A stretch of 64,000 nt of DNA. It comes from an uncultured virus (IMG/VR IMGVR_UViG_3300008120_009089). Taxonomy: Duplodnaviria; Heunggongvirae; Uroviricota; Caudoviricetes. The notes under the pieces were generated by a model. It saw nothing but the letters and a program-made list of their open reading frames with translations, had not been told where the DNA came from and did not search any database. The stretch is taken from the IMG/VR virus record IMGVR_UViG_3300008120_009089. One strand, given 5' to 3'. Below, piece after piece: positions 1,251-56,011 of the stretch (position 1 is the first letter of the stretch; each line of letters begins with the position of its first letter). The position numbers and the translations under genes were made by a program.

Positions 1251-1778
1251 TTAATTTAACAAATCGTTAATTATATGATCTCTATAATCATTAAAATATT
1301 TATTGAATTCTTCAACACCTACTCGGAATTCTTCATTCCTATCATTTAAAATTATTATCATTCCATGATAAATAGGATCCCAACAATAAAGATACTTAAT
1401 ATCTTCGTAAAATCTATATTTTCGACTACCATAATTATAGTCTAACTTACAATATTTTGTACAAATACAAACAAGAAAGTTATAAGTTACTTTTATATTT
1501 TCTCCACTTTTTCTATCCCAATGTCGCTTTATTTCTTGTTTTGATTTCGGGTTATATCCCTTTAATTTTTTAACTCTTTTCCAACCAAGTATTTTATTGT
1601 GTATTTCTTTTTTATCATTATTACACTTTTTGATGAACTCTAATTCATCAATACCTAATCGTTTAGCAAACTTCTCAGGACTAAATCTAGTAAACTTATG
1701 AAAATCGACTAAATTATCTTCGGTTATTTTAGTCTTGATTAAACTATCATATAATGAGTTATATTCTTCTAATGTCAT
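1251..1778 (-). CDS. hypothetical protein with C-terminal RDHIINDLL motif
   Basis: ORF 175 aa. Confidence 0.6.
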   Translation of the reverse strand: MTLEEYNSLYDSLIKTKITEDNLVDFHKFTRFSPEKFAKRLGIDELEFIKKCNNDKKEIHNKILGWKRVKKLKGYNPKSKQEIKRHWDRKSGENIKVTYNFLVCICTKYCKLDYNYGSRKYRFYEDIKYLYCWDPIYHGMIIILNDRNEEFRVGVEEFNKYFNDYRDHIINDLLN

Positions 1779-2272
1779 TCTAAAAACTTTAAAATCTTAC
1801 TTGATATGTTACATTGTTTTAAACCTTCTCGCTCACGAGTTTTAACGAAATTATCTAATTCACTTAAATCCATATCATCAATAGCAACCCAATGTGTTAC
1901 CTCTGGATGATTACTTAACCATAAGTTAATTTCATCTACTCGTATATCAGCTTTCTTAGTGATTGTTTGAAGTTCTGGTGTGAAATCAATAGGACCTTTT
2001 ATAACACCATATCGGTGAAATAAATCTTTCATTTCATCTAACGTAGCATGTAAACGCCAATCACTAGAACAAACTATCTCAGCACCAGATGTTAATATTA
2101 TATCATTTAAAACATCAACTGCCATCTTATTGAAATTGTCTAAACGAATGTAAGCAGGAATATCATCTTCGTCTCCACCCTCAAGAATAAATCGTTTCTT
2201 TTTCTGAAAACGACTACTCCATTCACGACTTAAACAAACCACTCCGTCATGATCTAAAAATATTACCTTCAT
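1775..2272 (-). CDS. HAD-superfamily phosphatase (Swiss Army Knife RNA-repair type)
   Basis: IFLDHDGV, IVCSSDWR and WVAIDD motifs. Confidence 0.8.
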   Translation of the reverse strand: MKVIFLDHDGVVCLSREWSSRFQKKKRFILEGGDEDDIPAYIRLDNFNKMAVDVLNDIILTSGAEIVCSSDWRLHATLDEMKDLFHRYGVIKGPIDFTPELQTITKKADIRVDEINLWLSNHPEVTHWVAIDDMDLSELDNFVKTREREGLKQCNISSKILKFLE

Positions 2273-2294
2273 TTTACAAATATATGAAAATTAA

Positions 2295-2480
2295 TTATAA
2301 AAAACTACTATTTCTATTATTATTCTTAATTGATTGTATAGAGAAATCTTTTATGTCACAATCAGTAATTGGATTAGATGAATGACCATATGGAACCGCA
2401 GTATATCTCTTAACACCATCCTTATCAGTTTGAATGATTGAGTAAAGTTTTCCATCTTTTGAGTACCTAAAAATTGTCAT
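2295..2480 (-). CDS. small hypothetical protein
   Basis: ORF 61 aa. Confidence 0.5.
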   Translation of the reverse strand: MTIFRYSKDGKLYSIIQTDKDGVKRYTAVPYGHSSNPITDCDIKDFSIQSIKNNNRNSSFL

Positions 2481-2517
2481 ATCTTTCTTATTTTTAATCT
2501 ATTATATGTATATATTT

Positions 2518-2558
2518 ATGTCAAAATGTCATAATTAGTCTAATGGCATATAATTTGA
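2518..2558 (+). promoter_or_regulatory. operator-like box ATGTCAAAATGTCATA plus sigma54-like promoter TGGCATATAATTTGA
   Basis: Same two boxes with the same 10-nt spacer occur upstream of dnaK (62436-62476). Confidence 0.65.
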
Positions 2559-2589
2559 AGATACTTATATAAAAAAAGAAAAAAAAGTT

Positions 2590-2910
2590 ATGAGAAAAAT
2601 TTATTATTTATTTGATTTAGTTGATTTATTTTCAAATGAAAATATTTTTGAAAATAAAATGAATTATCCAAAAGATGGTGATAAAAATTGGACCAAAACA
2701 ACAGAAGAATTTGAATCTAATGGAATGACTATTAAAAAAGAAACTTGGGTTAGCCTGGATGGAACATCAACGTATGTTAAAACATACACTGAAAACAAAA
2801 AGAGTATTGATGTCAAAGAGCTTGAATCCGCTTTAAAAATAGCAGTTGAAAAAGAAGAATATGAAAAAGCTGCTGAACTTCGTGACCAAATTAAGAAGTT
2901 GAAGAAATAA
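2590..2910 (+). CDS. UvrB/UvrC (UVR) coiled-coil motif protein
   Basis: C-terminal LESALKIAVEKEEYEKAAELRDQIKKL. Confidence 0.8.
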   Translation: MRKIYYLFDLVDLFSNENIFENKMNYPKDGDKNWTKTTEEFESNGMTIKKETWVSLDGTSTYVKTYTENKKSIDVKELESALKIAVEKEEYEKAAELRDQIKKLKK

Positions 2911-2940
2911 AAAAAAGACCTCAAAATTGAGGTCTTTTTT
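2909..2940. terminator. bidirectional intrinsic terminator
   Basis: aaaaaagacctc-aaaatt-gaggtctttttt. Confidence 0.8.
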
Positions 2941-3067
2941 ATTTTAAAAACACTATTCTGTGTTTGGGCCATCCAATATTGGATTTGACTCCACCACCTT
3001 ATTTTTCTAAATAAGGAAAATATGAAAGAAGATATTAATTATAAATTCTTTTTGTAGAAAAGTTTTA

Positions 3068-3244
3068 TTATTTATCACCTTTTTCTTCTTCAACTGAAGC
3101 CGCTCTATAAGGAGTAGCTAACTTCTTAATTTCACCAATGAATTTTCTTGCTTCACCAGCGTTTTTCTTAAATTTACCATTATGAGCTGCGTCAAATTTT
3201 TCCCATAAATCTTTTAATTGTTCATAAACTTCTTGTTTTGACAT
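3068..3244 (-). CDS. small basic protein resembling the Bacteroidetes histone H1-like (Hc1-family) protein
   Basis: Not in the ORF track. 58 aa MSKQEVYEQLKDLWEKFDAAHNGKFKKNAGEARKFIGEIKKLATPYRAASVEEEKGDK; the K..G.ARK....K...R.AS pattern matches. Confidence 0.55.
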   Translation of the reverse strand: MSKQEVYEQLKDLWEKFDAAHNGKFKKNAGEARKFIGEIKKLATPYRAASVEEEKGDK

Positions 3245-3288
3245 ATTATTTTATTTTATTTTTTAGGGTTAAGTACCCTTCGACTTTC

Positions 3289-4512
3289 TTATTCAAATAG
3301 ATCTGCTGCATCACTATCAACATATCCATCATTATCATCATCATCTCCACCCATTACTTCATTGAACTGTTTTTCAACCTCTTCAATTTCATCCAATGAT
3401 TTGAATCTGAAATAATCATTAACAATTGGTGCCATTTTTTCTAAAACATCTTGTGTAAACACCTCTTGAGTAAATAATTGTTTTGTTGTAACTGATTTCC
3501 CTAAGTGAGAAATATACCAACGGTTTCCACCAGGAACAAACTTAATCTCACCAGTTGATTTATCAACTTCTTCTTTACCTTTTGCGATACCAATTTGTTC
3601 AAAGAATTCTGGACGACAAAATGCGTCTAAGCCAGTGTAAGGATTCATACCATGAATAAAAGATATATCAAATCTAATTTTCTTAGGTTTTGCCAATCTA
3701 TTTTTTTGAGTTTTGAAAAGTACTGTAATACCGGAAGCACCTAAATCCATTTCATCCTCTTCAGAAGTTTTTAATTTACTTTTTGACATAAATCCAATTA
3801 CAGATGCTGAATAAAGTAGACCATTACCTCCGCGGAGTCGCTCTTGTGGAAAAAGATCCATTGTTAGATATGTATGGTTTGCCACCAAAAGTGGAATTTC
3901 TAAGTAACCCAAGTCTGTATTTATACTTCTAAACATAGAACCAAGTGCTTTAGCTTTAGTCATATCTTGTTTAATATCACCTTTTAATAAATCTTCTTTT
4001 TCTTTATTTGAAGCCATTTGTCCCAAAGAATCTAAAACAATCATCAATTTAGGCATCTCATAACCAGCTAGTTTTTGTTCTTTTAACTCATCTATCAATT
4101 TTGTTAAAGTTATGTTCACGTCTTCTACTTTATTAGATCTAACTAATCTAAATTTATCTAAAGAGTTATCAATTCCAAATTTTGGTAAGTCTTCTAAATC
4201 AATAGCCTGTTCAGTATCAATGTATATTACTGAATATCCTAATTTCTGAGCTTGTTTAGCACATGAGTAACAAAGAAAGCTCTTACCAGCACCTGATTCA
4301 CCAGCAAACGCAGTTATTCTATTTGTAGCAATACCACCCCCTAATAATCTACCAGATAAAGCAGCATCTAATAAATAAACACCAGTTGTTATAAATTGTT
4401 TTTCTTTAATTTCTTTTTCTACTAAAATTGGAACTGATTTTGCAATATTATCTAATATTGATCCAACTTTACTAAACTCAAATTTCTTCGTTTCTTTTCC
4501 TTGTTTTGCCAT
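3289..4512 (-). CDS. uvsX: UvsX/RecA-like recombinase
   Basis: Walker A GESGAGKS, YIDTE, IVLDSLG, VANHTY, GG.GLLYSAS. Confidence 0.92.
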   Translation of the reverse strand: MAKQGKETKKFEFSKVGSILDNIAKSVPILVEKEIKEKQFITTGVYLLDAALSGRLLGGGIATNRITAFAGESGAGKSFLCYSCAKQAQKLGYSVIYIDTEQAIDLEDLPKFGIDNSLDKFRLVRSNKVEDVNITLTKLIDELKEQKLAGYEMPKLMIVLDSLGQMASNKEKEDLLKGDIKQDMTKAKALGSMFRSINTDLGYLEIPLLVANHTYLTMDLFPQERLRGGNGLLYSASVIGFMSKSKLKTSEEDEMDLGASGITVLFKTQKNRLAKPKKIRFDISFIHGMNPYTGLDAFCRPEFFEQIGIAKGKEEVDKSTGEIKFVPGGNRWYISHLGKSVTTKQLFTQEVFTQDVLEKMAPIVNDYFRFKSLDEIEEVEKQFNEVMGGDDDDNDGYVDSDAADLFE

Positions 4513-4629
4513 TTTAATTAAATTCTTTTTTATACTTTATATATTAAAAAATAATTCCCCCTTTATAAATTTTTTTAAAAACTCCAAAATAAATTATCAA
4601 GGAGGGAATAATTTATTTATATATACAAT

Positions 4630-5679
4630 ATGACTAGGGAAGAATTTTTAGAAAGAGCACGTGATAAGCATGGATATAAATATGAATATCCAAATTTGAA
4701 AGATAAAGTATTATCAACTGATGATATAGATATAATCTATAACGGTGAACTATATAGACAAAAAGTTGTTAAGCACATAACATTGGGTCGTTGTCCAGAG
4801 AAAAATACACCAACAAAAACCACCGAGCAATTTATTAAAGAAGCTAAAGAAGTTTGGGGTGATAAATATGATTATTCATTAGTAAAATATAAGGGAGCTC
4901 TTAAAAAGGTTAAGATAATATATGATGGTCTTATATTTGAACAGGTCGCTATTTCTCATTTACAGGGACAATGTTGTGAAAAAAATTTAACCAAAGATAA
5001 TTTTATAAGAAAATCAATAAATAAACATGGTGATAAATACGATTATTCTATGGTTAAATATATATCAGGTGATATTCCTGTTTTAATAGGATATAAAGGT
5101 GTGTATTATTTACAAAAACCATATAATCACATAGGTGGTTCTAAACCAGAGAATATTGAATTATCAGTAAGAAAGACAACTAAAAAGTTTATACAAGAGG
5201 CTAATTTAGTTCATGATTTTAAGTTTAGTTATGATAAAACTGATTATGTTAAGAATCAGATTAAGGTTATAATTACTTGTCCTATACATGGTGATTTTAA
5301 TCAAACTCCACTTTCACATTTACAGGGTAATGGTTGCCCTAGTTGTAGTGAATCTCGTGGTGAAAAGTTAATTTCTAAATATTTGGATAAGAATGATATT
5401 TCATATTATAGACAGCATAAGTTTCCTGATTGTAAGAATATATTTCAATTACCATTTGATTTTTATTTACCGAAATACAGAACTATAATAGAGTTTGATG
5501 GTAAACAACATTATGAGCCGATTGAACATTTTGGTGGTTTAGAGGCTTATGAGCGTTTAAAGGTGAATGATAAGATTAAGAATGATTATTGTGAGGATAA
5601 TTATATTAATATAATAAGAATTAGATATGATCAGATTGATCGTATTTATTATATATTAAATGAGAGTTTAAGATTATAA
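4630..5679 (+). CDS. putative homing endonuclease (KYDYS-type repeats plus C-terminal PD-(D/E)xK/DUF559-like nuclease)
   Basis: Repeated F..KA...HG.KYDYS units, CPIHG..CPSC, LPFDFYL..IEFDGKQHY. Confidence 0.8.
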   Translation: MTREEFLERARDKHGYKYEYPNLKDKVLSTDDIDIIYNGELYRQKVVKHITLGRCPEKNTPTKTTEQFIKEAKEVWGDKYDYSLVKYKGALKKVKIIYDGLIFEQVAISHLQGQCCEKNLTKDNFIRKSINKHGDKYDYSMVKYISGDIPVLIGYKGVYYLQKPYNHIGGSKPENIELSVRKTTKKFIQEANLVHDFKFSYDKTDYVKNQIKVIITCPIHGDFNQTPLSHLQGNGCPSCSESRGEKLISKYLDKNDISYYRQHKFPDCKNIFQLPFDFYLPKYRTIIEFDGKQHYEPIEHFGGLEAYERLKVNDKIKNDYCEDNYINIIRIRYDQIDRIYYILNESLRL

Positions 5680-6096
5680 ACTAATACATACACAATAGTA
5701 ATCATATCCTTGATGACCTCTTAATAAAGGTTGTTCATACAAAACTTCCACTTTATAATTAGGATATTCGTCTTTTAGGTTATTTATAGCACCTTCCAAT
5801 TTAAGAAGGAATTCATTTGTTATTTTATTAAATTCAATAAAGTCGGATATTTCTCCTTTATATCCATCTGCTGTGAATTTCACTTCTAACTCAGGACAAT
5901 TTATAAATACTCTACAATCTGTTGGGTTTCCACTTTCGGTTACTTCTTCAAGTGTTTCTGAATTGCCCCAACGGAATTCACCACATTCATTATCTTCATT
6001 ATATGAATATTCCACTAAATCAGTGAAACAATGTTTGATATACTCAACATCAATTGAATTATCGGTATTTTCGTTAAATTTTCTTAGGTGTTTCAT
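5674..6096 (-). CDS. MKHLRKFNE-tag protein (paralog of 6476..6868)
   Basis: N-terminal tag; shares IEYIKHCF.DL and LKDEYPNY with 6476..6868. Confidence 0.7.
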   Translation of the reverse strand: MKHLRKFNENTDNSIDVEYIKHCFTDLVEYSYNEDNECGEFRWGNSETLEEVTESGNPTDCRVFINCPELEVKFTADGYKGEISDFIEFNKITNEFLLKLEGAINNLKDEYPNYKVEVLYEQPLLRGHQGYDYYCVCISL

Positions 6097-6479
6097 ACTT
6101 TATATTCAATATTTATTTTTAACTCACCAATTCTATTTACAATGAAGTTAACTTCATTTCCTTCACTTTCTATATCTTTAATTATGGCGTTTATACTATT
6201 AAGTGTTTCTTGTTTAATTCTTAATATTTCCATCTCATTTTCAATTGACGCTTTTAAAAAACCAGCATTTCCATATGGTGATCTATTCCATAATTTACCT
6301 TCAACAGGTTCCAATTTAACTTCAACATAAACACATTGAACACCTTCCACTCTTATTGGTTTTGCTATCAAAATATTAACATTATAGTAACCACTCTCTG
6401 AGATATCAGCAAAAAGTGTTTCTAGATATGATTTAGTTTCATCTTCAAAACTTTCATTAAATTTTCTTAGGTGTTTCAT
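6093..6479 (-). CDS. MKHLRKFNE-tag protein
   Basis: N-terminal tag, ATGA-coupled to neighbours. Confidence 0.7.
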   Translation of the reverse strand: MKHLRKFNESFEDETKSYLETLFADISESGYYNVNILIAKPIRVEGVQCVYVEVKLEPVEGKLWNRSPYGNAGFLKASIENEMEILRIKQETLNSINAIIKDIESEGNEVNFIVNRIGELKINIEYKV

Positions 6480-6868
6480 TTTTTATTATTTATATTTATC
6501 TGGAAGTAGTCATTTGGTCTATCATCATCCTCTTCGTAATTTATTTCAATATTATAATTAGGATATTCATCTTTTAATCTTTTGATTGAGATATCAATTG
6601 ATTTAATAATATGTGATATTCTTTCAGAATTACCAATCATTCTTTCAAAAGTTCCACCCTTAGTTATTCTAGGGATATCTATGGTTAAATCAACATATTC
6701 GTCATTAAGTGTGATTTCATCGTTTGGATTATCACGTAGATAATCTTCATGTGTATCATATTCTACATCACATTCTGGATCATCTGATAAGTCATTAAAA
6801 CAATGTTTGATATATTCTATATCAAGATGCTCATTTATACTTTCGTTAAACTTTCTTAGGTGTTTCAT
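6476..6868 (-). CDS. MKHLRKFNE-tag protein
   Basis: N-terminal tag. Confidence 0.7.
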   Translation of the reverse strand: MKHLRKFNESINEHLDIEYIKHCFNDLSDDPECDVEYDTHEDYLRDNPNDEITLNDEYVDLTIDIPRITKGGTFERMIGNSERISHIIKSIDISIKRLKDEYPNYNIEINYEEDDDRPNDYFQININNKK

Positions 6869-9063: not shown

Positions 9064-11301
9064 TTATTCATAAGATGGGAATTTAGGTAAAAAAATTCGA
9101 GAATTCGCATTATCTGCGAATATTAAGTGTTTAGAATCATCTCCTATTATATACATATTAAGTATCTTATTGTGATAACTTTCTGGTATAATATCATTAA
9201 ATAATCTAATATTAGTTACTTTCATATCTGATCCAATCAATTTACAAGTATTGATTGTATCACTTTCGATTAGATATTCAAATGGTGTTATATCAGTTGT
9301 GTTATAATACACTTTTCTTAATATTGTACTAATTAAAGATCCTGCTCTTGATTCATCATCAACATTTCTCTTATAAATCCATTGATCAATCTTTCTTTGT
9401 CTTTGGTCAATATTAATAGTATAACAATACCAAACTCCTTCTTCTAAAGCCACAGTATCATTTGTCTCATAACCCATTAAATCAAAAGTATAAGTATCAG
9501 AGTTTAAAGTAACTGTAATTTTATCATTCTTTAAATCAAATTTATAACCTTGATTTGTAGCATCATTATAATTTGTAAATAAATTATAATTATCATCTAT
9601 TACATAATTATGTATATTAAACCATATATAATATGATAGATTGTCGGATTCTCTTAAATAATTTCTCATATTCAAATATTGAACACCTACTTCACCAAAA
9701 GTAATTGAAGCTAAGTCATAATTAGAACGTGATACAATAGTTGATGAATTTTCAATTAACTCTTTATCTATTGCAGCTGTATAAGATAGTCTTATAGGAT
9801 CTTTAGTAAGAGGTGCTAATTGTTCTTTATTTGCAATAGCGTTTTTAGCTTCATTAATATCATTCCCGAATAATTCATCAATTGTACTATTCTTAGTTAA
9901 CTTATCAACAGTTTGTTTAACATCATTATTAGAGTAATTGATATTTGCTGATTTGTTGAATTTTTTCAATATTAATTTGTAATAAACAGCAGAGTTGTTA
10001 AAATTTCTAAATTGCTGTGCATGATCTACTGTAAATAATCTATTTATGTCACAGAAATAAAGAAAATCTTCTTTAGCTGGTCTTCTTTGTGGACCAAATA
10101 TTTCTTTAAACTGTTGCTTAGTTATATGAACCTGCATAGTTTCAAATAGATTTAAATCAAATTGATTCATCACTATTTGAGAGTCAGGAAAGTTGTTTTG
10201 ATCGACAGAAACTTTTAAATCTCCTTGACAAACAACATTATATAATTGATATTCATTAAATATTTTATCTTCACCTTTTTTATCTGGATCTGTAGCAAAA
10301 TAAATTACTTTATGACCAAATACTTGTTGAGCATCATTACTTAACTTTTGTAGTAAATTCATTGCTGAATTTTGTTGATATGGATTATATAGATTTGCTT
10401 TATCATCAGTTGATAACTGAGGTAAATTACTACCATCCGTAGCACAATTCTGACCATTAATACCTGTTGTATTTGAAGCTGGTACAAAATTCCCGTTAGC
10501 GTCTGTGTAACCCAACATATTAGACTGACAACATTCTCTAATTCCAAATAAATTTGTTTTAAAATAATCTTTACTAACATTTTGAAAGTCACCAATTAAG
10601 TTAATATCTTGTATAGTTACTGTTGAATTTGAGTTATTTGTTATACTATATTCTATTTGAAAAAATCTAATTGGATTTATTCTCAATGTTGAAATGTTTT
10701 GTGTTGTTAAAAACTCCCAGTTAGACCATGTTTTACTATTATCTTGTGAAAATCTATATTTAATATCAACATTAGTTAAGTTACTACCAGATATTATTTC
10801 TATATCAGTTATTCTAAAAACTTTATAAATAAAAGGAGCTTTCATTATAATTGTTTTACCAGATGCAATACTTATTGTCGAACCATCGGTTACTTCTTCT
10901 CTTTCTAATTCACCCTCTAATGAATATTCCAAAAGCTTAACATTTCCAATATCAGAAGTACCAGTTCTAACCCATTTAATCTCTAAATACATCGGAAATG
11001 CAGCCGACCAATCAGGAAAGTTTTCAAAATATTTTGTTAAATCTAACCAAGCAGACCAATCATAACCATTTCTAGATATTCTATAATAATGTTTTAAATA
11101 TCTAGTTGGTGTTAATCCTAAAGTATCATAACTAAATTTTGTAAATCTCTTAACATTTTGTAAATTTGGAAAAGATAAAATATATTCACTATCTATACTT
11201 GTAAATATAGGAGTAGCATTTGATGCTGTAGCAGAAGCTGTTATATCAAATTTATTTGATATTAATATTTTACCAGCTAACTCGTCATATTTTATTTGCA
11301 T
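9064..11301 (-). CDS. gp14-like neck/head-closure protein with extra N-terminal and C-terminal (LamG-like) domains
   Basis: Central FGHKVIYF...QFDL...F...P.KEDFLYF..INRLF.V...YYKL pattern resembles T4 gp14. Confidence 0.6.
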   Translation of the reverse strand: MQIKYDELAGKILISNKFDITASATASNATPIFTSIDSEYILSFPNLQNVKRFTKFSYDTLGLTPTRYLKHYYRISRNGYDWSAWLDLTKYFENFPDWSAAFPMYLEIKWVRTGTSDIGNVKLLEYSLEGELEREEVTDGSTISIASGKTIIMKAPFIYKVFRITDIEIISGSNLTNVDIKYRFSQDNSKTWSNWEFLTTQNISTLRINPIRFFQIEYSITNNSNSTVTIQDINLIGDFQNVSKDYFKTNLFGIRECCQSNMLGYTDANGNFVPASNTTGINGQNCATDGSNLPQLSTDDKANLYNPYQQNSAMNLLQKLSNDAQQVFGHKVIYFATDPDKKGEDKIFNEYQLYNVVCQGDLKVSVDQNNFPDSQIVMNQFDLNLFETMQVHITKQQFKEIFGPQRRPAKEDFLYFCDINRLFTVDHAQQFRNFNNSAVYYKLILKKFNKSANINYSNNDVKQTVDKLTKNSTIDELFGNDINEAKNAIANKEQLAPLTKDPIRLSYTAAIDKELIENSSTIVSRSNYDLASITFGEVGVQYLNMRNYLRESDNLSYYIWFNIHNYVIDDNYNLFTNYNDATNQGYKFDLKNDKITVTLNSDTYTFDLMGYETNDTVALEEGVWYCYTINIDQRQRKIDQWIYKRNVDDESRAGSLISTILRKVYYNTTDITPFEYLIESDTINTCKLIGSDMKVTNIRLFNDIIPESYHNKILNMYIIGDDSKHLIFADNANSRIFLPKFPSYE

Positions 11302-12743: not shown

Positions 12744-12917
12744 ATGGCTAAGAATGGGGATATAATTTTTCTTGAAAGAAGGCTTCAAGAATTATTAGAG
12801 AAGGAGGATTACGAAAGAGCTGCTATCGTAAAAAGATGGATTGATGAATTAACTATTTTTTACGATAAAAAAAAGAAAATTTTGGAAGATGATTTATCTA
12901 AAAACAAACAAAGATAA
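12744..12917 (+). CDS. stand-alone UVR-motif mini-protein
   Basis: Not in the ORF track. 57 aa MAKNGDIIFLERRLQELLEKEDYERAAIVKRWIDEL... Confidence 0.65.
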   Translation: MAKNGDIIFLERRLQELLEKEDYERAAIVKRWIDELTIFYDKKKKILEDDLSKNKQR

Positions 12918-13167
12918 TATAGTTTCAATTTCAAGAGAAAATATAAAAAGTCAACAAGATGAATTTCCTAGATACGTTGAATTTGTTGATAGTGTTATTA
13001 TAGAAAGTTACGATTCAATCGATACTTTGAAGTTTAAAGATATTAACCCTATAATTACAATAAACATAAATTCAACTATTCAATATAGAGTAGAGTACAA
13101 AGGTGATCCAGATGATTTTTTAAAATCAATTATTAGAGACAACAAACTAAACGATTTATTAAAATGA
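12889..13167 (+). CDS. hypothetical protein, C-terminal IRDNKLNDLLK
   Basis: ORF plus shared C-terminal motif. Confidence 0.65.
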   Translation: MIYLKTNKDNIVSISRENIKSQQDEFPRYVEFVDSVIIESYDSIDTLKFKDINPIITININSTIQYRVEYKGDPDDFLKSIIRDNKLNDLLK

Positions 13168-13508
13168 TAAAAGGTAGAGTTCTTTATGATTCTGATATAA
13201 AAGATCATAATAAATTAGGAGTTTATGGTATTTTTGATACCAAAAAAGTAACTTGGGAATATTTTGTTATATCTTATATTTCTAAAAACAATGAAATATC
13301 ATTAACGGCTGAAATATGTACCTATGGAAATACAAAACCAACTTTTGATGATATTAAAAGATATGGGTTAAAAGTAAATGAAATTGAAGTTGGTAAAAAA
13401 TTCATTTTAGATTATAAATCTAAATGGGAAAGTGGATTAAATGTAACAACACAAGAAGATAGAGATAGAAAACTAAACGAAATTTTAGACAATGAGAACA
13501 CTAACTGA
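13164..13508 (+). CDS. hypothetical protein, C-terminal DRDRKLNEILD
   Basis: ORF plus shared motif. Confidence 0.65.
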   Translation: MIKGRVLYDSDIKDHNKLGVYGIFDTKKVTWEYFVISYISKNNEISLTAEICTYGNTKPTFDDIKRYGLKVNEIEVGKKFILDYKSKWESGLNVTTQEDRDRKLNEILDNENTN

Positions 13509-13743
13509 AATATACAATAACAAATACGATGTAAGAGAATCAGAAATTCCTAGAGAGTTTTACAAAAGCTTTCAAGAATTCATGTTTGGATCAACTTGTT
13601 ACAAAGACGATTCCTCTGGTGAGGATGAATTTGTTTATTACATATCAGATTTTAAAATGTGGTATAGACTTAACATAAAAGAAATAGAATTATACGAAAA
13701 AAGACAAGAAAGAGATGATAAAATTAATAAATTATTAGATTAA
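13492..13743 (+). CDS. hypothetical protein, C-terminal ERDDKINKLLD
   Basis: ORF plus shared motif. Confidence 0.65.
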   Translation: MRTLTEIYNNKYDVRESEIPREFYKSFQEFMFGSTCYKDDSSGEDEFVYYISDFKMWYRLNIKEIELYEKRQERDDKINKLLD

Positions 13744-14267: not shown

Positions 14268-14435
14268 ATGAAATCACTTTTTATTAAAGCATTAAGACCT
14301 GTTCTTCAAATTTACGCTAACTTCTTAATCACACAATTAGAAACTGATAATTTAGACTTATATGAACATTATATGTCACAAGCTGTTTTATTAGATTTCT
14401 GTGCAACTGAATACTATGATATTTATTTAGACTAA
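14268..14435 (+). CDS. small hypothetical protein (55 aa)
   Basis: Not in the ORF track. MKSLFIKALRPVLQIYANFL...; follows TATATTTG (14236) and is TAATG-coupled to the next gene. Confidence 0.55.
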   Translation: MKSLFIKALRPVLQIYANFLITQLETDNLDLYEHYMSQAVLLDFCATEYYDIYLD

Positions 14436-14812
14436 TGAAAAAATTATACTTAGACGATTTAAGAATACCAAAAGACTCTATCGGATTTGTTCCAGATAAT
14501 TTAAACCAATTTTATTGGGCTAACGACTGGACTATCGTTAGAAACTTTTGGGAGTTCTGTAATTATATCCAAAAGTTTGGATTACCAGACTTTATTTCTT
14601 TCGATCATGATTTAGCTGACGAACACTATGTTAGTGACGTTAACTATAATGATTATAAAGAAAAAACTGGATATGAGGCAGCAAAATGGTTAGTTGATTG
14701 GTGTTTTGATAACAAAAAATCATTACCAGATTTTGTTGTACATTCGGCTAATACTGTTGGTAAAGTAAATATTGAAAGTTATTTAAATAACGCTAAAAAA
14801 CATTTACTATGA
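14435..14812 (+). CDS. cyclic-phosphate processing receiver-like domain protein
   Basis: LYLDDLR, ISFDHDL, TGYEAAKWL, VHSAN. Confidence 0.8.
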   Translation: MKKLYLDDLRIPKDSIGFVPDNLNQFYWANDWTIVRNFWEFCNYIQKFGLPDFISFDHDLADEHYVSDVNYNDYKEKTGYEAAKWLVDWCFDNKKSLPDFVVHSANTVGKVNIESYLNNAKKHLL

Positions 14813-15120
14813 ATTTTTTAAAGGCTCACTTAGTAGCAAACATTAAAAGACTTTATAAAGATTATGAAACTAAATTAGGATTAGATCCTAGTGTTAAATT
14901 TTTATATCTTGATGAACCAGTATTAACCACTAAGAAAAAAATTAATAGAATTAATGCTTGGTACCCATATGCTTTAGATGAAGTTGTAAATAGTGGTTGG
15001 CATGATTTAAAAGGTGGTGAGATAAAAGAGATTTGGCAAAAAATTAAAAGTAATAAAGTCTATGTTGTAAAAAACATTGGTGGTAAATTCTATAAAGTGA
15101 GAAAAAAAGATGATATTTAA
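14809..15120 (+). CDS. hypothetical protein
   Basis: ORF 103 aa within an operon. Confidence 0.55.
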   Translation: MNFLKAHLVANIKRLYKDYETKLGLDPSVKFLYLDEPVLTTKKKINRINAWYPYALDEVVNSGWHDLKGGEIKEIWQKIKSNKVYVVKNIGGKFYKVRKKDDI

Positions 15121-15880
15121 TTTAAGAGATATTAACTTCTATTATAATGGTGTTAGTGAAGATCACAATGTCACATATGATTGTGAGAATAATGGATGCC
15201 ATGATGAAGGTATATGTCGTTGTGGTATGATAACAGATGTTTATATCACAGATGTTGATATTACTCGTATATCAAATATTATTTATGATACTATCAATGA
15301 TGGTGATAATGATTTATCAATAAAGAGAAATGTTAAGTTAGATCTTTTGCTAAATGGTTATGGAAAAGATATGGATCTTTATATGATAGATCGTATTCTT
15401 AGAAAATGGAAAGTATATGATCCGAATTCTTGGGATGTTGATATTTGTGGTGGATATTATGGTCAAGAAATCGAAGATATTTTACTTAAACAAAATATCT
15501 GTGATGAATTAAACTCAGAGATAATTAAAGCTCTTTCAATTGAACCTTTAGGTGAACGAGTTGAGTATCTCTTAAAATTAGAATATAATAAAATTCTACC
15601 TGAATTAAAAGAAAGTGAATGGTCATTAGAAATTGTTGATTTGGATAAAATTATTTTTGGTAGTGAACATCATGTAAAAAAATGTAAAAAAGAGATTGAG
15701 AAAGGATCTGTAAAATACAGAGGATATTTCTATGATGATAAAAATTATAACACGGTATTAACTAAGTTAATAAGAGGTGTTGCCATTAAAAAAGGAGATA
15801 ATTATAGATTGATTGATGGATACCATCGTTGTTTATCAACCGGAAATAACAGAGTTAAACTTTTGATTGCTAAAAAATAA
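15110..15880 (+). CDS. hypothetical protein with Cys cluster and C-terminal ParB/Srx-like motif
   Basis: C..GC..EGICRC; YRLIDGYHR; internal KRNVKLDLLL. Confidence 0.55.
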   Translation: MIFNLRDINFYYNGVSEDHNVTYDCENNGCHDEGICRCGMITDVYITDVDITRISNIIYDTINDGDNDLSIKRNVKLDLLLNGYGKDMDLYMIDRILRKWKVYDPNSWDVDICGGYYGQEIEDILLKQNICDELNSEIIKALSIEPLGERVEYLLKLEYNKILPELKESEWSLEIVDLDKIIFGSEHHVKKCKKEIEKGSVKYRGYFYDDKNYNTVLTKLIRGVAIKKGDNYRLIDGYHRCLSTGNNRVKLLIAKK

Positions 15881-15896
15881 TTATTATATTTGTATT

Positions 15897-16364
15897 ATGA
15901 AAGCTAAAATATTTATATTGATTGGAGTACCAATGTCAGGTAAATCAACTTGGGTAAGAGAAAACTACCCAAACACTAAAGTTATATCTAGAGATGATAT
16001 AGTTTTAGAAGTACATGGATCTAACGATTATAATAAAGCTTTTAATGAAGTTAATCAAAAAGAAGTTAATCGAATATTAGACGAACGCTTATTAGATGCT
16101 TCTAAATCAAACGAAGATGTTATCATAGATATGACTAACATGACTTCTAAAAGAAGAAGATCAACTCTTAAATATTTCACTGACTTCTACAAAGAAGCAG
16201 TTGTATTCCCCGTTTTATCAAACGAAGAATATGATAGAAGAAATAAAATAAGAACTGTTAACGAAAACAAATCAATACCATTAGCAGTTTTAAGAACTAT
16301 GCTTAACTCTTATCAATCACCAACCAAAGAAGAAGGATTTGATAAAATAACTGTATTAAAATAA
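15897..16364 (+). CDS. P-loop kinase (polynucleotide kinase/AAA_33-like)
   Basis: GVPMSGKST, ISRDD, VIIDMTN...RR, P...EGFD; ATG at 15897. Confidence 0.85.
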   Translation: MKAKIFILIGVPMSGKSTWVRENYPNTKVISRDDIVLEVHGSNDYNKAFNEVNQKEVNRILDERLLDASKSNEDVIIDMTNMTSKRRRSTLKYFTDFYKEAVVFPVLSNEEYDRRNKIRTVNENKSIPLAVLRTMLNSYQSPTKEEGFDKITVLK

Positions 16365-16797: not shown

Positions 16798-17160
16798 ATG
16801 ACAACTATCAACAACATCGACATTTCAAAATTAAAATACGTAGAAGGACAATTTATTCCATCTAAAGATTTTTCTGATTATATTGATGAAGATACAACGT
16901 ATGTTTCTGAAGAGGGTTATATCTACTTAGATAATGAAGATGATATCTGTGTTGATATTAAATTCGAACAAAATATTTCCGGTTATATTACAGGTTGTCC
17001 TGGAGACTACTGGACACCAGCTTCTTATTCAGCTGTTATTGAAGATGATAGTTTTGATATCTTATCTTTAGAAATTGATGGTGAAGAAGTTGAACTTACT
17101 AAAGAAATCGAAGAGATTTTAAACTCTATTGTTAGAGAGAAAATTTATGGAGTTAAATAA
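16798..17160 (+). CDS. acidic hypothetical protein (GDYWTP motif)
   Basis: ORF after TATATTTG (16770). Confidence 0.6.
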   Translation: MTTINNIDISKLKYVEGQFIPSKDFSDYIDEDTTYVSEEGYIYLDNEDDICVDIKFEQNISGYITGCPGDYWTPASYSAVIEDDSFDILSLEIDGEEVELTKEIEEILNSIVREKIYGVK

Positions 17161-21452: not shown

Positions 21453-21470
21453 TGAAATTCAGTGGTTTTT
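21444..21470. terminator. intrinsic terminator
   Basis: aaaaaccactgaa-a-ttcagtggttttt. Confidence 0.75.
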
Positions 21471-22659: not shown

Positions 22660-22678
22660 TTTTTCTAATATAAACTCT

Positions 22679-23616: not shown

Positions 23617-23656
23617 AATATAATAAATTACTTTGTAACCAAAATTTTTTAATAAT

Positions 23657-25846: not shown

Positions 25847-25850
25847 TCTT

Positions 25851-25883: not shown

Positions 25884-25913
25884 TATTTTATATAAATAAA
25901 AAATAATTAAATA

Positions 25914-40683: not shown

Positions 40684-41271
40684 TTAATCAGACCATTTGT
40701 TTCCTTTAGATAGATTATCCTTAGCCCATAGTGGTTGAAAATTAGTGTAATGGTTTAACTCGTATATCTCATCTTCTGTATTAGCCCAACTTATCGGCGT
40801 TTTGTGGTCTAAGTGCCATTTACCATGATTTTCCCAAGTCATTCCTTCATTGAATTGACTTTCTATGTGAATTTTGAATTCTTCAAATGAACAGCCTAGT
40901 ATATTATTCACTTTTGATTTTTTTGAAAATCCTCTTTTCTTAATCGATGTGTAAATCAACTTTCTTATAGATATCGATAGTTTAAATAGATTATCATATT
41001 TTTTTCTTTCATTTATATAAATATTTCTATTTTCTCTATTCTCTTCTTGATATTTTTTATTTCTCTCTATTATATAATCTTTATTTTTAGAGTAATTTTC
41101 TCTAGATCTCTGTATAAGAATATCTCTATTATCAATATAATATTCTTTCATTTTTTCTTTTCTAGAATCATTATATTTTTTATTTAAAATTTTATTACAT
41201 TCTATACAAACTGACCATCTTTTAAATTGAGATAAATCTTTTTCTAATTCACATTTACTGCATTTTTTCAT
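40684..41271 (-). CDS. HNH homing endonuclease
   Basis: CxxC..CxxC; GMTWENHGKWHLDHKTP...NHYTNFQPLWAKDNLSK. Confidence 0.85.
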   Translation of the reverse strand: MKKCSKCELEKDLSQFKRWSVCIECNKILNKKYNDSRKEKMKEYYIDNRDILIQRSRENYSKNKDYIIERNKKYQEENRENRNIYINERKKYDNLFKLSISIRKLIYTSIKKRGFSKKSKVNNILGCSFEEFKIHIESQFNEGMTWENHGKWHLDHKTPISWANTEDEIYELNHYTNFQPLWAKDNLSKGNKWSD

Positions 41272-41293
41272 AAGTTATATATTAATATATAAC

Positions 41294-41326
41294 TTCTACC
41301 TTTTCTACCTTTTCTACCTTTTCTAC
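41294..41326. repeat. 9-nt tandem repeat (ttctacctt) x ~3.5
   Basis: ttctaccttttctaccttttctaccttttctac. Confidence 0.85.
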
Positions 41327-41569
41327 TTAATTTTGTTGGTTAATTCCCATAATCTTTTCAGATAAATATTCTGTATAAGCAATACTACCCAAACTCTCTT
41401 TTGTGTATTGAGAATAATCTGGCTTATACCATCTACTATCAAAATAATTATTATGTGAATTATCAATTACTTCACCCCTAAAAATTTTTAAGATTTTTTG
41501 AGCTCTTAAAAAAGAATTATATCCAACATCATTTCTATATGGATCAACACTTATATAATATGGGTTCAT
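41327..41569 (-). CDS. mini-protein with YISVDPY...VGY segment and RAQKILKIF motif
   Basis: ORF 80 aa. Confidence 0.55.
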   Translation of the reverse strand: MNPYYISVDPYRNDVGYNSFLRAQKILKIFRGEVIDNSHNNYFDSRWYKPDYSQYTKESLGSIAYTEYLSEKIMGINQQN

Positions 41570-45464: not shown

Positions 45465-45491
45465 AAAAAAACCACTCAATTGAGTGGTTTT
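45465..45491. terminator. bidirectional terminator
   Basis: aaaaccactcaa-ttgagtggtttt. Confidence 0.75.
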
Positions 45492-45829
45492 ATTATTTCT
45501 TCTATTATTTCATTTCTCGATTCAGACTTAATCATATTAAGTAAATCCCCATATGTAATTTCTTCACTTAATAATTCATCTTTGTAATAAATATCAAACT
45601 CAGCAAAACTAGCAGTGTCTCCATCCATTCTTGGTAATTCACCATCATATCCTCTATACGAAACCATTGTAAGTCCTCTGAAAAATCCCCAACCACTTGA
45701 AACTAATAGATTTTGATTCCATTCAGTGTAATCAGATTCTATTGTAACTTCGGTTCCACCAACATAATATTCATCTGGTTTTGCAATGAATTTAAAGTCC
45801 TTTAAAAAATCAATCTTAGAAATCATCAT
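45476..45829 (-). CDS. hypothetical protein, C-terminal [10 protein letters not shown]
   Basis: ORF plus degenerate shared motif. Confidence 0.6.
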
Positions 45830-47474: not shown

Positions 47475-47512
47475 ATTTTATATATTAAAAAATTATCCGT
47501 ATGTTTGCTATT

Positions 47513-47896
47513 ATGAAAAGGTTATTTTTAGACGATTGGCGAATTCCTAGAGACTGTGCTACTTATATGTGGCAAAGAAAGGTGAATTGTACCGTATTCC
47601 ACGAAGAATGGGATATAGTAAGATCGTATGGTCAATTTAAATCTTGGATAATTGAAAATGGTATACCAGATTTAGTAGCATTTGATTATGATTTAGCTGA
47701 TGTTGAAGAATTAAAAGAAGAACTTCCATTTGAATATTGGTTTAATCTAGATGAAAATAGAGTTTATACTGGATTGGATTGTGTTATTTTTTTACTTAAC
47801 TATTGTAAAGAAAGAAACTTAAACTTTCCTGAATATATTATTCATTCAGCAAATCCGGATGGAAGTGATGAAATAAAAAAACTTTTAGCTGTGTAA
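47513..47896 (+). CDS. cyclic-phosphate processing receiver-like domain protein (second copy)
   Basis: LFLDDWR, VAFDYDL, TGLDC, IHSANP. Confidence 0.8.
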   Translation: MKRLFLDDWRIPRDCATYMWQRKVNCTVFHEEWDIVRSYGQFKSWIIENGIPDLVAFDYDLADVEELKEELPFEYWFNLDENRVYTGLDCVIFLLNYCKERNLNFPEYIIHSANPDGSDEIKKLLAV

Positions 47897-53622: not shown

Positions 53623-53692
53623 AAAAATTATTTTATTTTAGTGTATATATTAAAATAATTTTACTATATTTGTAAGACAAAATCGGAGAGTT

Positions 53693-53869
53693 ATGAAAGG
53701 GAAAATTAAAATCGGAAAAATTACACAAGAGCAAATCTTAACAGTTTATAAGAAAGCGTCTAGAGAGATGGAATTAGAGAACTCTACTGGTTGGGTTGCT
53801 AAACATAAAGTTCATAAATCAGCTAAGAACTATACAAGAAAAGATAAACACAAAGTTAGCTTTGTATAA
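53693..53869 (+). CDS. small basic protein, ArfA-like (alternative ribosome rescue) C-terminal motif
   Basis: Not in the ORF track. 58 aa ...KKASREMELE...KHKVHKSAKNYTRKDKHK; follows TATATTTG (53665). Confidence 0.5.
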   Translation: MKGKIKIGKITQEQILTVYKKASREMELENSTGWVAKHKVHKSAKNYTRKDKHKVSFV

Positions 53870-53870
53870 T

Positions 53871-53900
53871 AAAAAAAGAGAGAATTTAATTCTCTCTTTT
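53871..53900. terminator. bidirectional terminator
   Basis: aaaagagagaatt-t-aattctctctttt. Confidence 0.8.
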
Positions 53901-54072
53901 ATTTTGAATATATTTTTCTAATTTTAGATTGTCTATTTGAAATTATCCATCGTCTCAATTCTTCAATGAACAAATTATCTGGGTATATTCTACCATTATT
54001 CCTATTCATTCGATCAAATTTTTGTAAAACTCCGTGTAAAATATATTTACCATCAACTATTTCTACTTTCAT
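53899..54072 (-). CDS. 57-aa mini-protein: prohead-protease N-terminal fragment plus RQSKIRKIY tail
   Basis: Not in the ORF track; ATGA overlap with the dnaJ stop; [57 protein letters not shown]. Confidence 0.7.
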
Positions 54073-55139
54073 ACTTTAAATGTATTTGAGTTTTTAAACT
54101 TCTCTAAAATCATTCTTTCATCAAGTGGAATATCTTTTGGTATTTTCAAATTAAATTTTATATAAAGATCTCCTAAACCATAATTTAAGTCTGGAATACC
54201 TTTACCTGAAATTCTAATTGTTTTCCCGTGTTCTGTTCCAGCTTCAACTAAAACCGGTATATCACCATGTGGTGTTGATACAGTTATATTATTACCACAA
54301 AGAGCATCTATAACAGATATTGTTTTTTCTACAACTATATTATTACCTTCTCTTTTGAATGAGAAGTCTTGAGCTTCTTCTATAATAATAAAAAGATCAC
54401 CTGGTATTCCATTTCTAACATCATTTCCATTACCATTCATTTTCAACTGCATTCCATTTGAAACACCTGCTGGTACTTGAATATCAACTACTTGTTCTTG
54501 TAAAGTAGTACCATCTCCATGGCAATGATTACACTTATTGTGAATTTGTTCACCAGAACCTCCACAATCTGGACAATGTGTTTGAGTTCTTACTTGTCCA
54601 AATGGTGTATTTTGAACAACAACTCTTTGTCCTGTTCCATTACAAACTAAACATTCTCTTACATCAGAACCTCCTTTTCCATCACAAGGATTACATTTTA
54701 CTTGTCTTCTGTATTTTAATTTTTTAGTTGTTCCTTTAAGTATCTCATCAATATTAACAACAACTTTAATTCTTAAATCACCACCTTTTTTAGTTCTTTG
54801 TCTTTGTTGTTGTCTTCCACCAAAAGGATTACCACCAAAGATATCACCAAACTGTGAAAATATATCATCCATTGAAAATCCGTGACCACCACCAAATGGA
54901 TTACCTCCTCCAAATGGATTACCACCAGTTGAACCAAATCTATCATAACTCTGGCGTTTAGAAGGATCGCTAAGAGTTTCATAAGCTTCAGCCGCCTCTT
55001 TAAATTTAGCCTCTGCTTCTGGATTATTAGGATTTTTATCTGGATGAAACTGCATAGCCATCTTACGATAAGCTTTTTTAATTTCATCATCAGTTGCTCC
55101 TTTATTAACTCCTAAAATAGTATAATAGTCTTTATTCAT
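54069..55139 (-). CDS. dnaJ: chaperone DnaJ
   Basis: J-domain HPD, G/F region, four CxxCxGxG repeats. Confidence 0.96.
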
Positions 55140-55151
55140 TTTTTAGATTTT

Positions 55152-55478
55152 TTATTTTAATATATTATTTAGTAATATGTCTCTTTTAATAGATTTAAGA
55201 GGTTCATTAAATCTTATTTTTGTATTTGAATTATAATCAAACCAAAATGAATCATTTTCATAAGTAGTCCAATTATAATCTTTTTTTGTATGAAATCTTA
55301 AAATTGGTAGTTTATTCATAATATCTCTACATAGTTCAATGATTTTATCTTCATCAAACTCTTCCTCATCTATTTTATTAACCTCATCACAAAAGTAGTC
55401 CATTACTTCACCAACAGTCTCATTAACTACTCTTAAATAGTTTTTATCTGTTCTAGTACTTTCGATATACCAATTCAT
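55152..55478 (-). CDS. hypothetical protein, C-terminal KRDILLNNILK
   Basis: ORF plus shared motif. Confidence 0.6.
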   Translation of the reverse strand: MNWYIESTRTDKNYLRVVNETVGEVMDYFCDEVNKIDEEEFDEDKIIELCRDIMNKLPILRFHTKKDYNWTTYENDSFWFDYNSNTKIRFNEPLKSIKRDILLNNILK

Positions 55479-56011
55479 TTTAATGTCTTTTTAAGTTTCA
55501 AATCTCTTATCTCTAATTTAATTTCATCATATGTTTTATTTCTACAATTAGAAATCATTTTGTTTATATAGTTTTGACAAACTAAGTTTAAAGTTTCTAT
55601 ACCCATATCTAAATACTTAAACTCTATTAAACAATTTTTAATTTTTGGTAGAAAGTCAACTAAATAGTTGATAAAATCATCAACATCCCAATATAGTTGA
55701 AATAATTCTAGCTTTTTATCACCATATTCCGAGAAATTAAATAAAGTTGGTTTGTTTATAAAAACCATAGACCAAGTTTTTCTAATGGCTGGTATGATAA
55801 GTACTTCTAGTTCATCCTCATCATCACCAATTTTACCAGATAATAAACTAAAAACCTCAATTCTATTATCTAAAACATATTCTAAATCAGATTTAAGATT
55901 TGATTTTAATTCATCATCAACACCAGTAAGCATAGAATCAACAAGACTTTGTTTATATAAGTCTTGTTGTAATAATTCTATAAAGCTTTTTTTGTTTACT
56001 GGTAAGTTCAT
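55475..56011 (-). CDS. hypothetical protein, C-terminal IRDLKLKKTLK
   Basis: ORF plus shared motif. Confidence 0.6.
   Translation of the reverse strand: MNLPVNKKSFIELLQQDLYKQSLVDSMLTGVDDELKSNLKSDLEYVLDNRIEVFSLLSGKIGDDEDELEVLIIPAIRKTWSMVFINKPTLFNFSEYGDKKLELFQLYWDVDDFINYLVDFLPKIKNCLIEFKYLDMGIETLNLVCQNYINKMISNCRNKTYDEIKLEIRDLKLKKTLK

Follow-up and report, generated by a model that had tools for sequence, protein, structure and literature searches.

Why do many small and otherwise dissimilar proteins of one phage end in nearly the same ten residues? The question is raised by a 64,000-nucleotide stretch of DNA from an uncultured tailed virus (IMG/VR record IMGVR_UViG_3300008120_009089; Caudoviricetes), referred to as the window, for which an original prediction, made from the sequence alone, had listed 13 such peptides and proposed that they form an amphipathic helix docking on a common hub. 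The peptide consists of an arginine, an acidic or amide residue, a variable residue, usually a lysine or arginine, an isoleucine or leucine, two variable residues, a further isoleucine or leucine, and a leucine, isoleucine or glycine, mostly followed by one residue more and the stop codon. It constitutes a proteome-wide, C-terminally enriched tag that is carried by roughly one tenth of the proteins in a subgroup of AT-rich megaphages. On balance, we lean towards the view that it is a portable C-terminal docking tag of about ten residues for one co-evolving reader.

The window has a G+C content of 26-31%. Pfam searches identified T4-type replication and recombination genes (gp32, a UvsX/RecA-like protein and NrdB); the window additionally codes for RNA ligases, RNA-repair domains, a glycosyltransferase block, DnaJ, GrpE and a ClpC-type unfoldase that lacks the N-domain. 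After reverse complementation, positions 1-61244 match the 186,465-bp IMG/VR contig G002 identically. UvsX is 85% identical to its counterpart in LR745206.1 (634 kb), 81% in LR756502.1 (642 kb), 59% in LR756504.1 (636 kb), 50% in LR756501.1 (735 kb) and 34% in Lak-A1 (541 kb), and every one of the closest records by UvsX similarity is an uncultured huge phage. By this comparison, the window is assigned to an AT-rich megaphage with LR745206.1 and LR756502.1, of the Mahaphage clade, as its nearest relatives. The 634-, 636-, 642- and 735-kb genomes have been placed in this clade, with Bacteroidetes as predicted hosts (Al-Shayeb et al. 2020, PMC7162821). Open reading frames (ORFs) were compiled for the window (101, each of at least 50 amino acids), G002 (233), LR756502.1 (965), LR756504.1 (923) and LR756501.1 (1005).

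Enrichment of the motif at C-termini

The pattern RD..[IL]..[IL]L (dots denoting any residue) occurred six times in the 101 window ORFs, and all six sites were located in the last 20 residues. Whole-protein shuffling yielded means of 0.16 sites in total and 0.01 terminal sites, and the observed count was attained in none of 300 shuffles. With asparagine admitted at the second position (R[DN]..[IL]..[IL]L), eight sites were obtained, seven of them terminal, as compared with shuffle means of 0.28 and 0.01. The loosest pattern of the original prediction was weakly enriched over entire proteins (14 sites against 7.1 in shuffles, a count attained by 4 of 300); its terminal count of 11, against 0.56, was attained by 0 of 300 shuffles. 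When only the last 20 residues were shuffled, which keeps the terminal composition bias, the mean was 0.035 as against 7 of the 101 ORFs, and 7 was attained in none of 1000 shuffles. The motif was absent from the first 20 residues of these ORFs, as was its reversed form from their last 20.

All 742 six-frame ORFs of the window were searched with a hidden Markov model (HMM) built solely from 144 LR756502.1 tags. The 11 best-ranked ORFs were all among the 13 instances that had been listed, with modest domain E-values for the window tags (1e-4 to 2.7). The predicted excess over shuffled controls at C-termini was thus confirmed by shuffling and by an independently derived model. The motif patterns had been refined after the data were seen, a bias against which cross-genome HMM tests and shuffle controls protect only in part.

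All 13 peptides are present at the ORFs named for them, each ORF being designated by its low coordinate. Nine are solid and two are plausible (53899 and the internal site of 15110), whereas two found no support: the site in 34357 reached only rank 14 (E 9.4) in the HMM search of the window ORFs, and the internal site of 41327 gave no match there. The nine core ORFs (1251, 12889, 13164, 13492, 17160, 23269, 45476, 55152 and 55475) fit R-[DN]-x-x-[IL]-x-x-[ILT]-[LI], with the motif beginning 10-18 residues before the C-terminus.

The same enrichment was obtained with larger ORF sets. G002 contains 28 instances: 22 fall within the final 20 residues, and in 13 the distance from the arginine to the C-terminus is exactly 10 residues. 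For LR756502.1, the strict pattern gave 68 matches, 51 of them terminal (2.5 and 0.13 expected), and a wider pattern admitting Gly-Ile endings gave 172, with 136 terminal (21 and 1.2 expected); the arginine is positioned exactly 10 residues from the end in 69 of these 136. The tagged LR756502.1 proteins are short (median 114 amino acids, compared with 152 overall), include 116 of the 477 ORFs of up to 150 amino acids, and are encoded by genes that cluster in runs.

Unrelated bodies and conservation of the tag

The N-terminal parts had been described as unrelated, and sequence comparisons agree with this description. No significant pairwise similarity was detected by blastp among the tag bearers of the window. 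When the tags were removed and the remaining bodies were clustered with phmmer (E ≤ 1e-3), G002 gave 24 clusters from 24 bodies, all singletons, and LR756502.1 gave 124 clusters from 133 bodies, 119 of which were singletons; LR756504.1 gave 98 clusters from 134 bodies, with up to 10 bodies per cluster. Body lengths in LR756502.1 range from 55 to 622 amino acids. Pfam matches were obtained for 5 of 135 tagged LR756502.1 proteins (unrelated families: flavokinase, BtpA-like domain, DUF6011, DUF2158 and a zinc ribbon) and, above the cut-off, for none of the 28 tagged G002 proteins. Matches to RNase II/R, S1 and PhoH in 3 of 60 scanned LR756504.1 proteins were taken as false positives, as the ends of these proteins fit the loose pattern only. 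A homologue in LR756504.1 was found for 2 of 153 tagged but 206 of 812 untagged LR756502.1 proteins, and for 2 of 116 tagged but 42 of 361 untagged proteins among ORFs of up to 150 amino acids. At the sequence level, the tagged bodies thus appear as small, unrelated ORFans with a fast turnover. For the 92-amino-acid protein encoded by ORF 12889, tblastn against 50,697 phage records gave no match, and a search of its tail in the ESM Atlas gave no usable match.

The tag pattern is retained at the end in all nine true orthologue pairs (G002 versus G003 or LR756502.1). The family of the 178-amino-acid protein encoded by ORF 55475 was represented by 96 cluster representatives of at most 50% identity, taken from a library of 1.8 billion proteins. 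The strict tag terminates 70 of the 96, about 15 further variants were recognised by eye, and the remainder are fragments or have unrelated ends. In an alignment of 62 rows, the tag arginine is among 10 nearly invariant columns. The family profile had no match in the PDB at E ≤ 1, and Pfam searches with 62 members returned one stray match only. Orthologues, as far as these alignments reach, hold on to the tag pattern while their bodies drift.

Selection acts on the tag peptide rather than on the DNA, because synonymous codons within the tags follow genome usage. In 133 LR756502.1 tags, codon choice at each conserved position tracks that of the genome, with a mild shift to A-ending codons; the DNA beneath the window tags varies at synonymous sites, and Ile and Leu interchange. 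A motif at the DNA level was rejected on the basis of this synonymous-site variation and the genome-like codon usage. A six-frame search of G002 placed all good tag matches in a long coding frame.

The peptide may adopt the short amphipathic helix that had been claimed for it. Its hydrophobic residues are spaced i, i+3, i+4 with flanking charges, and proline is absent from positions 0 to +8 in 144 tags; but the proteins of ORFs 13164 and 12889, for which AlphaFold2 draws a helix at the tag, were modelled with low mean predicted local distance difference test scores (42.3 and 36.7), a quality insufficient for fold searches. Ahead of the tag, the spacing of hydrophobic residues showed no clear helical periodicity.

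Lineage-specific versions of the tag

An HMM of the 28 G002 tags, representing the R-D form, produced 55 matches in LR756502.1 (E ≤ 0.1) and 28 in LR745206.1 (E ≤ 0.01), and none in LR756504.1, LR756501.1, Lak-A1 or LR756500.1. When gapped triplets at the ends of ORFs were counted de novo, LR756504.1 proved to have a dialect that reads R-K-x-[KRI]-I-x-x-L and has the same Ile/Leu spacing as the R-D tag. R...I..L is present in 111 of the 923 ORF ends of this genome (4.4 expected), lysine follows the arginine in 90 of 176 cases, and the distance from arginine to end is 9 residues in 65 of 176. An HMM of 100 R-K tags had 46 matches in LR756504.1 and none in LR756502.1, LR756501.1, Lak-A1 or LR756500.1. 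LR745206.1, Lak-A1 and LR756500.1 were covered by HMM search only, without de novo discovery, and 'no tag' there denotes the lack of an R-D or R-K tag. Within the 55475 family, lysine follows the arginine in 4 of the 70 tagged representatives, and one protein family therefore carries both the R-D and the R-K dialect. Long tandem arrays of genes for 70-100 amino acids with a terminal R-K tag were observed in LR756504.1 (loci L058-L089, e.g. 221-5571 and 20537-28353), and many of these array genes share a stretch F-x-T-h-x-E-[YH] just ahead of the tag.

LR756501.1 has neither form. Instead, its 1005 ORFs contain 107 sites of the type [LI]-DPYGEE-x-W, 40 of them in the last 20 residues and 26 exactly 10 from the end, while the other sites are internal, up to four per protein, in large proteins (examples at loci L090-L126, e.g. 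552409-555773). Judged from sequence, the tag exists in lineage-specific versions, namely the R-D form, the R-K dialect and the unrelated DPYGEExW motif.

Several tagged mini-proteins resemble parts of larger phage proteins. An R-K-tagged mini-protein of 178 amino acids in LR756504.1 matches residues 124-285 of the major head protein of the same genome (E 6e-16; target identified by PHROG). Among the DPYGEExW-tagged mini-proteins of LR756501.1, those of 78 and 169 amino acids match the head protein of sister genomes (E down to 6e-8), those of 207 and 178 amino acids the head maturation protease (E down to 2e-52; PHROG) and one of 146 amino acids the tail sheath (E 2e-11; PHROG). In G002, outside the window, a tagged mini-protein of 102 amino acids matches the UVR segment of the phage ClpC (residues 303-337; E 3e-6). 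The R-K tag and DPYGEExW are considered functionally equivalent modules mainly because fragments of similar types carry one or the other, although the two tags are unrelated.

Candidate readers of the proposed docking tag

If the motif is a docking tag, its helix would attach every tagged protein to one shared reader, and specificity would come from the variable body, which might for instance bind a target in the host or the phage. This reader would co-evolve with the tag, which would explain why one sister lineage has K in place of D at position two and why the tag has been replaced by a different one in another; sister genomes with a dialect or a different tag are what such co-evolution would be expected to look like. 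The proposal of a common docking hub is therefore borne out as regards a portable tag on varied cargo (unrelated bodies, retention of the pattern, dialects), but none of the hubs that had been named is supported.

The leading candidate for the reader, to be regarded as tentative, is the phage's own ClpC-ClpP, with the tagged proteins as tethered adaptors or baits or as timed substrates. The window encodes a ClpC-type AAA+ unfoldase at 23657-25846 (plus strand) that has Pfam matches to AAA_2, AAA_lid_9, ClpB_D2-small and UVR and none to Clp_N; in the place of the latter domain there are about 45 residues that are acidic and rich in Ser and Lys. At least 120 relatives of about 700-713 amino acids and 83-91% identity are encoded on metagenome contigs, which reach 629 kb in length. 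Three ClpP proteins and one ClpS are encoded in LR756502.1, with homologues in LR756504.1, and ClpP is found in LR745206.1 too. The pointers to Clp are weak and comprise the presence of clpC in the window, the tagged ORFs adjacent to it and the mini-protein that copies the UVR segment of ClpC. A tagged ORF adjoins clpC in four of five genomes, being located directly upstream in G002, G003 and LR756502.1 and, with a DPYGEExW tag, directly downstream in LR756501.1; LR756504.1 has no tagged ORF next to clpC. Complex prediction for ClpC with the 92-amino-acid protein of ORF 12889 returned a score of 0.00 in both runs, from alignments of only 25 and 2 rows, a result that counts neither for nor against an interaction.

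A more elaborate version of the Clp proposal seems unlikely to us. It envisages a toolkit for targeted degradation, composed of more than 100 fast-evolving baits that each bear one docking peptide and hand their catch to the phage ClpC-ClpP. Some baits would be copies of phage capsid, protease and sheath surfaces recognised by host immune sensors, and tag and reader would co-evolve, the lineages having swapped in different versions. The original prediction had suggested that an adaptor library of this sort could route host defence proteins to proteolysis; the tagged capsid, protease and sheath fragments in the sister genomes fit the bait idea, without proving it.

A number of observations weigh against a docking tag in general and its Clp form in particular. 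About half of the tags carry 2-9 extra residues and 6 of 28 in G002 are internal, so that a free C-terminus is not required. Identity between orthologues is 46% in the nine tag positions as compared with 40% in the bodies, meaning that the pattern alone is retained. The ORFs are a crude greedy longest-ORF set (translation table 11), in which stops and C-termini are reliable and gene counts approximate. As to Clp, ClpP is present in Lak-A1 and LR756500.1, both with 0 matches to either tag HMM, and is missing from LR756501.1, which bears its own tag, DPYGEExW. The clpC-adjacent tagged ORFs of G002, G003 and LR756502.1 represent one inherited arrangement, not three events, and the adjacency in LR756501.1 has an estimated probability of about 8% of arising by accident (40 tagged among 1005 ORFs, two neighbours).

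The order grpE, tagged, tagged, dnaJ is not retained in LR756502.1, where grpE directly adjoins dnaJ. Phyletic profiling identified 45 LR756502.1 proteins, including the three ClpP, ClpS and GrpE, whose homologues are present in LR756504.1 but missing from LR756501.1; it was rejected as a route to the reader, as 45 candidates are too many and the wider ClpP pattern does not fit. The same distribution was noted for a PrkA AAA kinase gene beside a gene for a DUF444 protein (LR756502.1 273831-277142, L031) and for NAMPT and an aspartyl/asparaginyl-type tRNA synthetase. The UVR motif (PF02151), which is found in the middle domain of ClpC and in two mini-proteins of the window, resembles the tag in having an Arg-Asp pair followed by spaced Ile/Leu residues, and UVR mini-proteins of the window adjoin tagged genes, but its hydrophobic residues after R-D are in another register (window segment 2590-2910 and ClpC). 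The genuine PF02151 matches of the window are 2590-2910 (E 2.5e-10), 12744-12917 (E 2.3e-4) and ClpC (E 5.9e-5). Identity of the tag with this motif was rejected, given that 0 of the 28 tagged G002 proteins match it at E ≤ 1. In a test for a sliding-clamp tail, of the sort borne by T4-type polymerases and late transcription factors, only one of the 136 tagged LR756502.1 ORFs exceeded 301 amino acids, a 622-amino-acid ORFan without Pfam match, and the DNA polymerase gene itself was not located.

Alternative explanations

The tag could serve as a loading signal for the capsid or a compartment, binding the procapsid interior, a scaffold or another phage shell so that the cargo is delivered with the DNA. 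Fragments of the major head protein, head maturation protease and tail sheath do occur among the tagged mini-proteins of the sister genomes, and a single terminal peptide on many unrelated cargos is the typical design of such systems. Against this, the operons that contain tagged genes of the window hold nrdB, clpC, grpE/dnaJ and RNA-repair genes instead of structural genes, and the neighbours of the tagged genes are nrdB, clpC, grpE, dnaJ, RNA-repair and UVR mini-protein genes, with no structural gene among them. The annotated virion structural proteins of G002 are large and outside the tagged set. Microcompartment shell families were absent from the Pfam matches of the 101 window ORFs and the PHROG matches of 129 further G002 ORFs. 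A loading function must likewise be called unlikely.

As a pure degron, the tag would mark short-lived early proteins for ClpC-ClpP or a host protease, making them substrates without any adaptor role. Its position near the C-terminus, the phage-encoded ClpC and the ClpP and ClpS of relatives would suit this role, terminal degrons being the usual means by which AAA+ proteases choose substrates. The last residue is variable, however, extensions and internal sites are tolerated, the presence of ClpP across genomes is out of step with the tag, and the conserved positions resemble one face of a helix more than an unstructured tail. We regard this explanation as quite unlikely.

It is improbable that the tag is a helix for self-association, by which the tagged proteins oligomerise with themselves or each other and have no dedicated reader. 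The i, i+3, i+4 hydrophobics with flanking charges and the absence of proline suit such a helix, and dialects could drift freely without a partner. A peptide of nine residues is, however, rather small to form a stable coiled coil, the cost of letting over 100 different proteins mix at random seems high, and comparable mini-proteins of LR756501.1 bear instead an acidic-aromatic motif that is not helical.

Descent of all tagged proteins from one ancient, hugely diverged paralogue family, in which the C-terminal helix is the best-kept part of a common fold, is decidedly improbable. Tagged genes do form tandem arrays, and some arrays consist of true paralogues (134 bodies in 98 clusters, the largest of 10, in LR756504.1). 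The bodies nevertheless vary from 55 to 622 amino acids; a flavokinase and a BtpA-like domain are found among them, as are fragments of the head protein and of the ClpC UVR segment. They are singletons in 24 of 24 cases in G002 and 119 of 133 in LR756502.1.

A signal in the DNA, RNA or nascent chain (stop-codon context, translational coupling or a ribosome-tunnel effect) would account for the sharp peak in arginine-to-stop distance (69 of 136 at 10 in LR756502.1, 65 of 176 at 9 in LR756504.1) but is extremely improbable, given that synonymous codons vary as they do genome-wide, some 50% of the tags are found at a different distance from the stop, a few of them internally, and the six-frame search finds the motif in the coding frame only.

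Relation to known systems

The proposed docking tag bears a likeness to Clp tethers and degrons, capsid and encapsulin loading signals and poxviral docking modules, in design only. The ClpX-binding tail of SspB and the ssrA tag are terminal peptides of Clp proteases that, much like the tag may do, link otherwise unrelated proteins to one AAA+ machine through a short peptide at or near the C-terminus; in the present case, however, the phage ClpC lacks the N-domain on which known adaptors dock, and the last tag residues are variable. The capsid targeting sequence of T4 internal proteins and the cargo-loading peptides of encapsulins are likewise short terminal peptides on unrelated cargo and are read by a single shell, but the T4 signal is N-terminal and limited to a handful of proteins, whereas the tag is C-terminal, is carried by more than 100 proteins and is encoded in the window by genes that are not beside capsid genes. 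Poxviruses possess large, fast-evolving multigene families of ankyrin/F-box-like (PRANC) and BTB-Kelch proteins, which combine a variable binding part with a conserved C-terminal docking module and whose genes are clustered, and they may serve as a model for an adaptor library. In poxviruses, ubiquitin ligases of the host are bound by a folded domain of about 30-50 residues; the megaphage module is a ten-residue peptide, and the host is bacterial. We know of no counterpart to a terminal tag on 10-14% of a proteome.

In agreement with the statement of the original prediction that no description was known, literature searches, which left supplements aside, found none of a proteome-wide terminal tag in phages. 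The words 'C-terminal' and 'Clp' do not occur in the main text of Al-Shayeb et al. 2020 (PMC7162821), and the passages of Iyer et al. 2021 (PMC7824862) on jumbo phages mention ClpP, ClpS and DnaJ but no terminal tag. In the largest known phages, about one gene in ten, now listed as a blank 'hypothetical protein', would follow a single organising principle. Should the tag be an address label, finding its reader would place hundreds of ORFans in a common pathway, for which proteolysis, packaging and localisation are candidates, and the dialects (R-D, R-K and the unrelated acidic-aromatic tag) offer a natural handle for a search for the reader by co-variation. Together with its reader, a portable ten-residue tag would also lend itself to protein control in Bacteroidota, the host phylum predicted for Mahaphage-clade genomes (Al-Shayeb et al. 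2020, PMC7162821).

Tagged genes and further features of the window

The operon context that had been claimed for several tagged genes, with clpC, grpE-dnaJ, nrdB and a UVR mini-protein gene, is correct by coordinates. Three tagged genes follow one another on the plus strand next to the UVR mini-protein gene 12744-12917, which is overlapped by the first of them. This ORF (12889-13167, 92 amino acids) ends in RDNKLNDLLK, has its tag DNA at 13135-13161 and was ranked first by the HMM; its G003 orthologue (67% identity) retains the tag. It is followed by an ORF of 114 amino acids (13164-13508, tag DNA 13461-13487), in which RDRKLNEIL precedes six further residues and whose homologues P0001 and P0002 and LR756502.1 orthologue retain the pattern, and by one of 83 amino acids (13492-13743, tag DNA 13711-13737), which ends in RDDKINKLLD and has a tag-terminated G003 orthologue. 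Two further plus-strand ORFs are located at 17160-17432 (90 amino acids, RDKRLEDLL followed by KSID, tag DNA 17391-17417, HMM rank 5) and, immediately upstream of clpC, at 23269-23616 (115 amino acids, RNERLEQIL followed by nine residues, tag DNA 23560-23586).

The remaining core ORFs are on the minus strand. ORF 1251-1778 (175 amino acids) ends in RDHIINDLLN, with the arginine 10 residues from the end (tag DNA 1257-1283, HMM rank 7). ORF 45476-45829 (117 amino acids), immediately downstream of nrdB, has RNEIIEEII followed by KPLN (tag DNA 45491-45517), and its LR756502.1 orthologue terminates in RDSKLNKLIR. Between grpE and dnaJ, ORF 55152-55478 (108 amino acids) ends in RDILLNNILK (tag DNA 55158-55184, HMM rank 3), and ORF 55475-56011 (178 amino acids), which abuts grpE, ends in RDLKLKKTLK (tag DNA 55481-55507). 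Two instances are borderline. The 256-amino-acid ORF 15110-15880 (plus strand) contains an internal, tag-like RNVKLDLLL at residue 73 (tag DNA 15326-15352, HMM rank 11), and its G003 orthologue has RDSKLSYLL at an equal distance from its end. The 57-amino-acid ORF 53899-54072 (minus strand) has a terminal R-Q variant (tag DNA 53908-53934, HMM rank 10, E 1.2), and R-Q variants are also present in LR756502.1. Just downstream of ORF 41327-41569, at about 41287-41326 on the minus strand, a 9-nt unit is repeated three to four times head to tail in an intergenic position.

The octamer AATATATA (or ATTATATA) often starts 12 nt upstream of start codons, with examples in the window ahead of 910-1239, 9064-11301, 17429-18766, 40684-41271 and 57346-58299. 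The octamer is located within 80 nt upstream of 58 of 233 G002 genes (4.1 expected), 198 of 965 LR756502.1 genes and 117 of 923 LR756504.1 genes, and it is probably the promoter or initiation signal of this clade. Only 1 of the 198 motif-bearing LR756502.1 genes is tagged; avoidance of AATATATA was dropped as a clue to timing, as the tagged genes of the window are mostly not the first in operons whose first gene has the octamer.

A scattered set of RNA-repair genes is located at 1775-2272, 14435-14812, 15867-16364, 22171-22659, 47501-47896, 58386-59030 and 60009-61232 and comprises a HAD_SAK_2 domain, two cREC_REC receivers, an AAA_33 kinase, a CYTH domain and two RNA ligases. About 10 co-directional sugar-modification genes occupy 25914-34370 and include three of the GT2 type as well as GT47, GT11, an FkbM methyltransferase, a UDP-galactopyranose mutase and DUF3431. 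Three tandem paralogues of 128-140 amino acids at 5674-6868 have similar N-termini (blastp E 3e-12 to 8e-4) and no Pfam match. At 18812-20728, a flavodoxin/FMN-reductase-like gene is split by an intein with a LAGLIDADG endonuclease, and a LAGLIDADG insert is likewise found in a PhoH-like gene elsewhere in contig G002 (L011:7411-9273).

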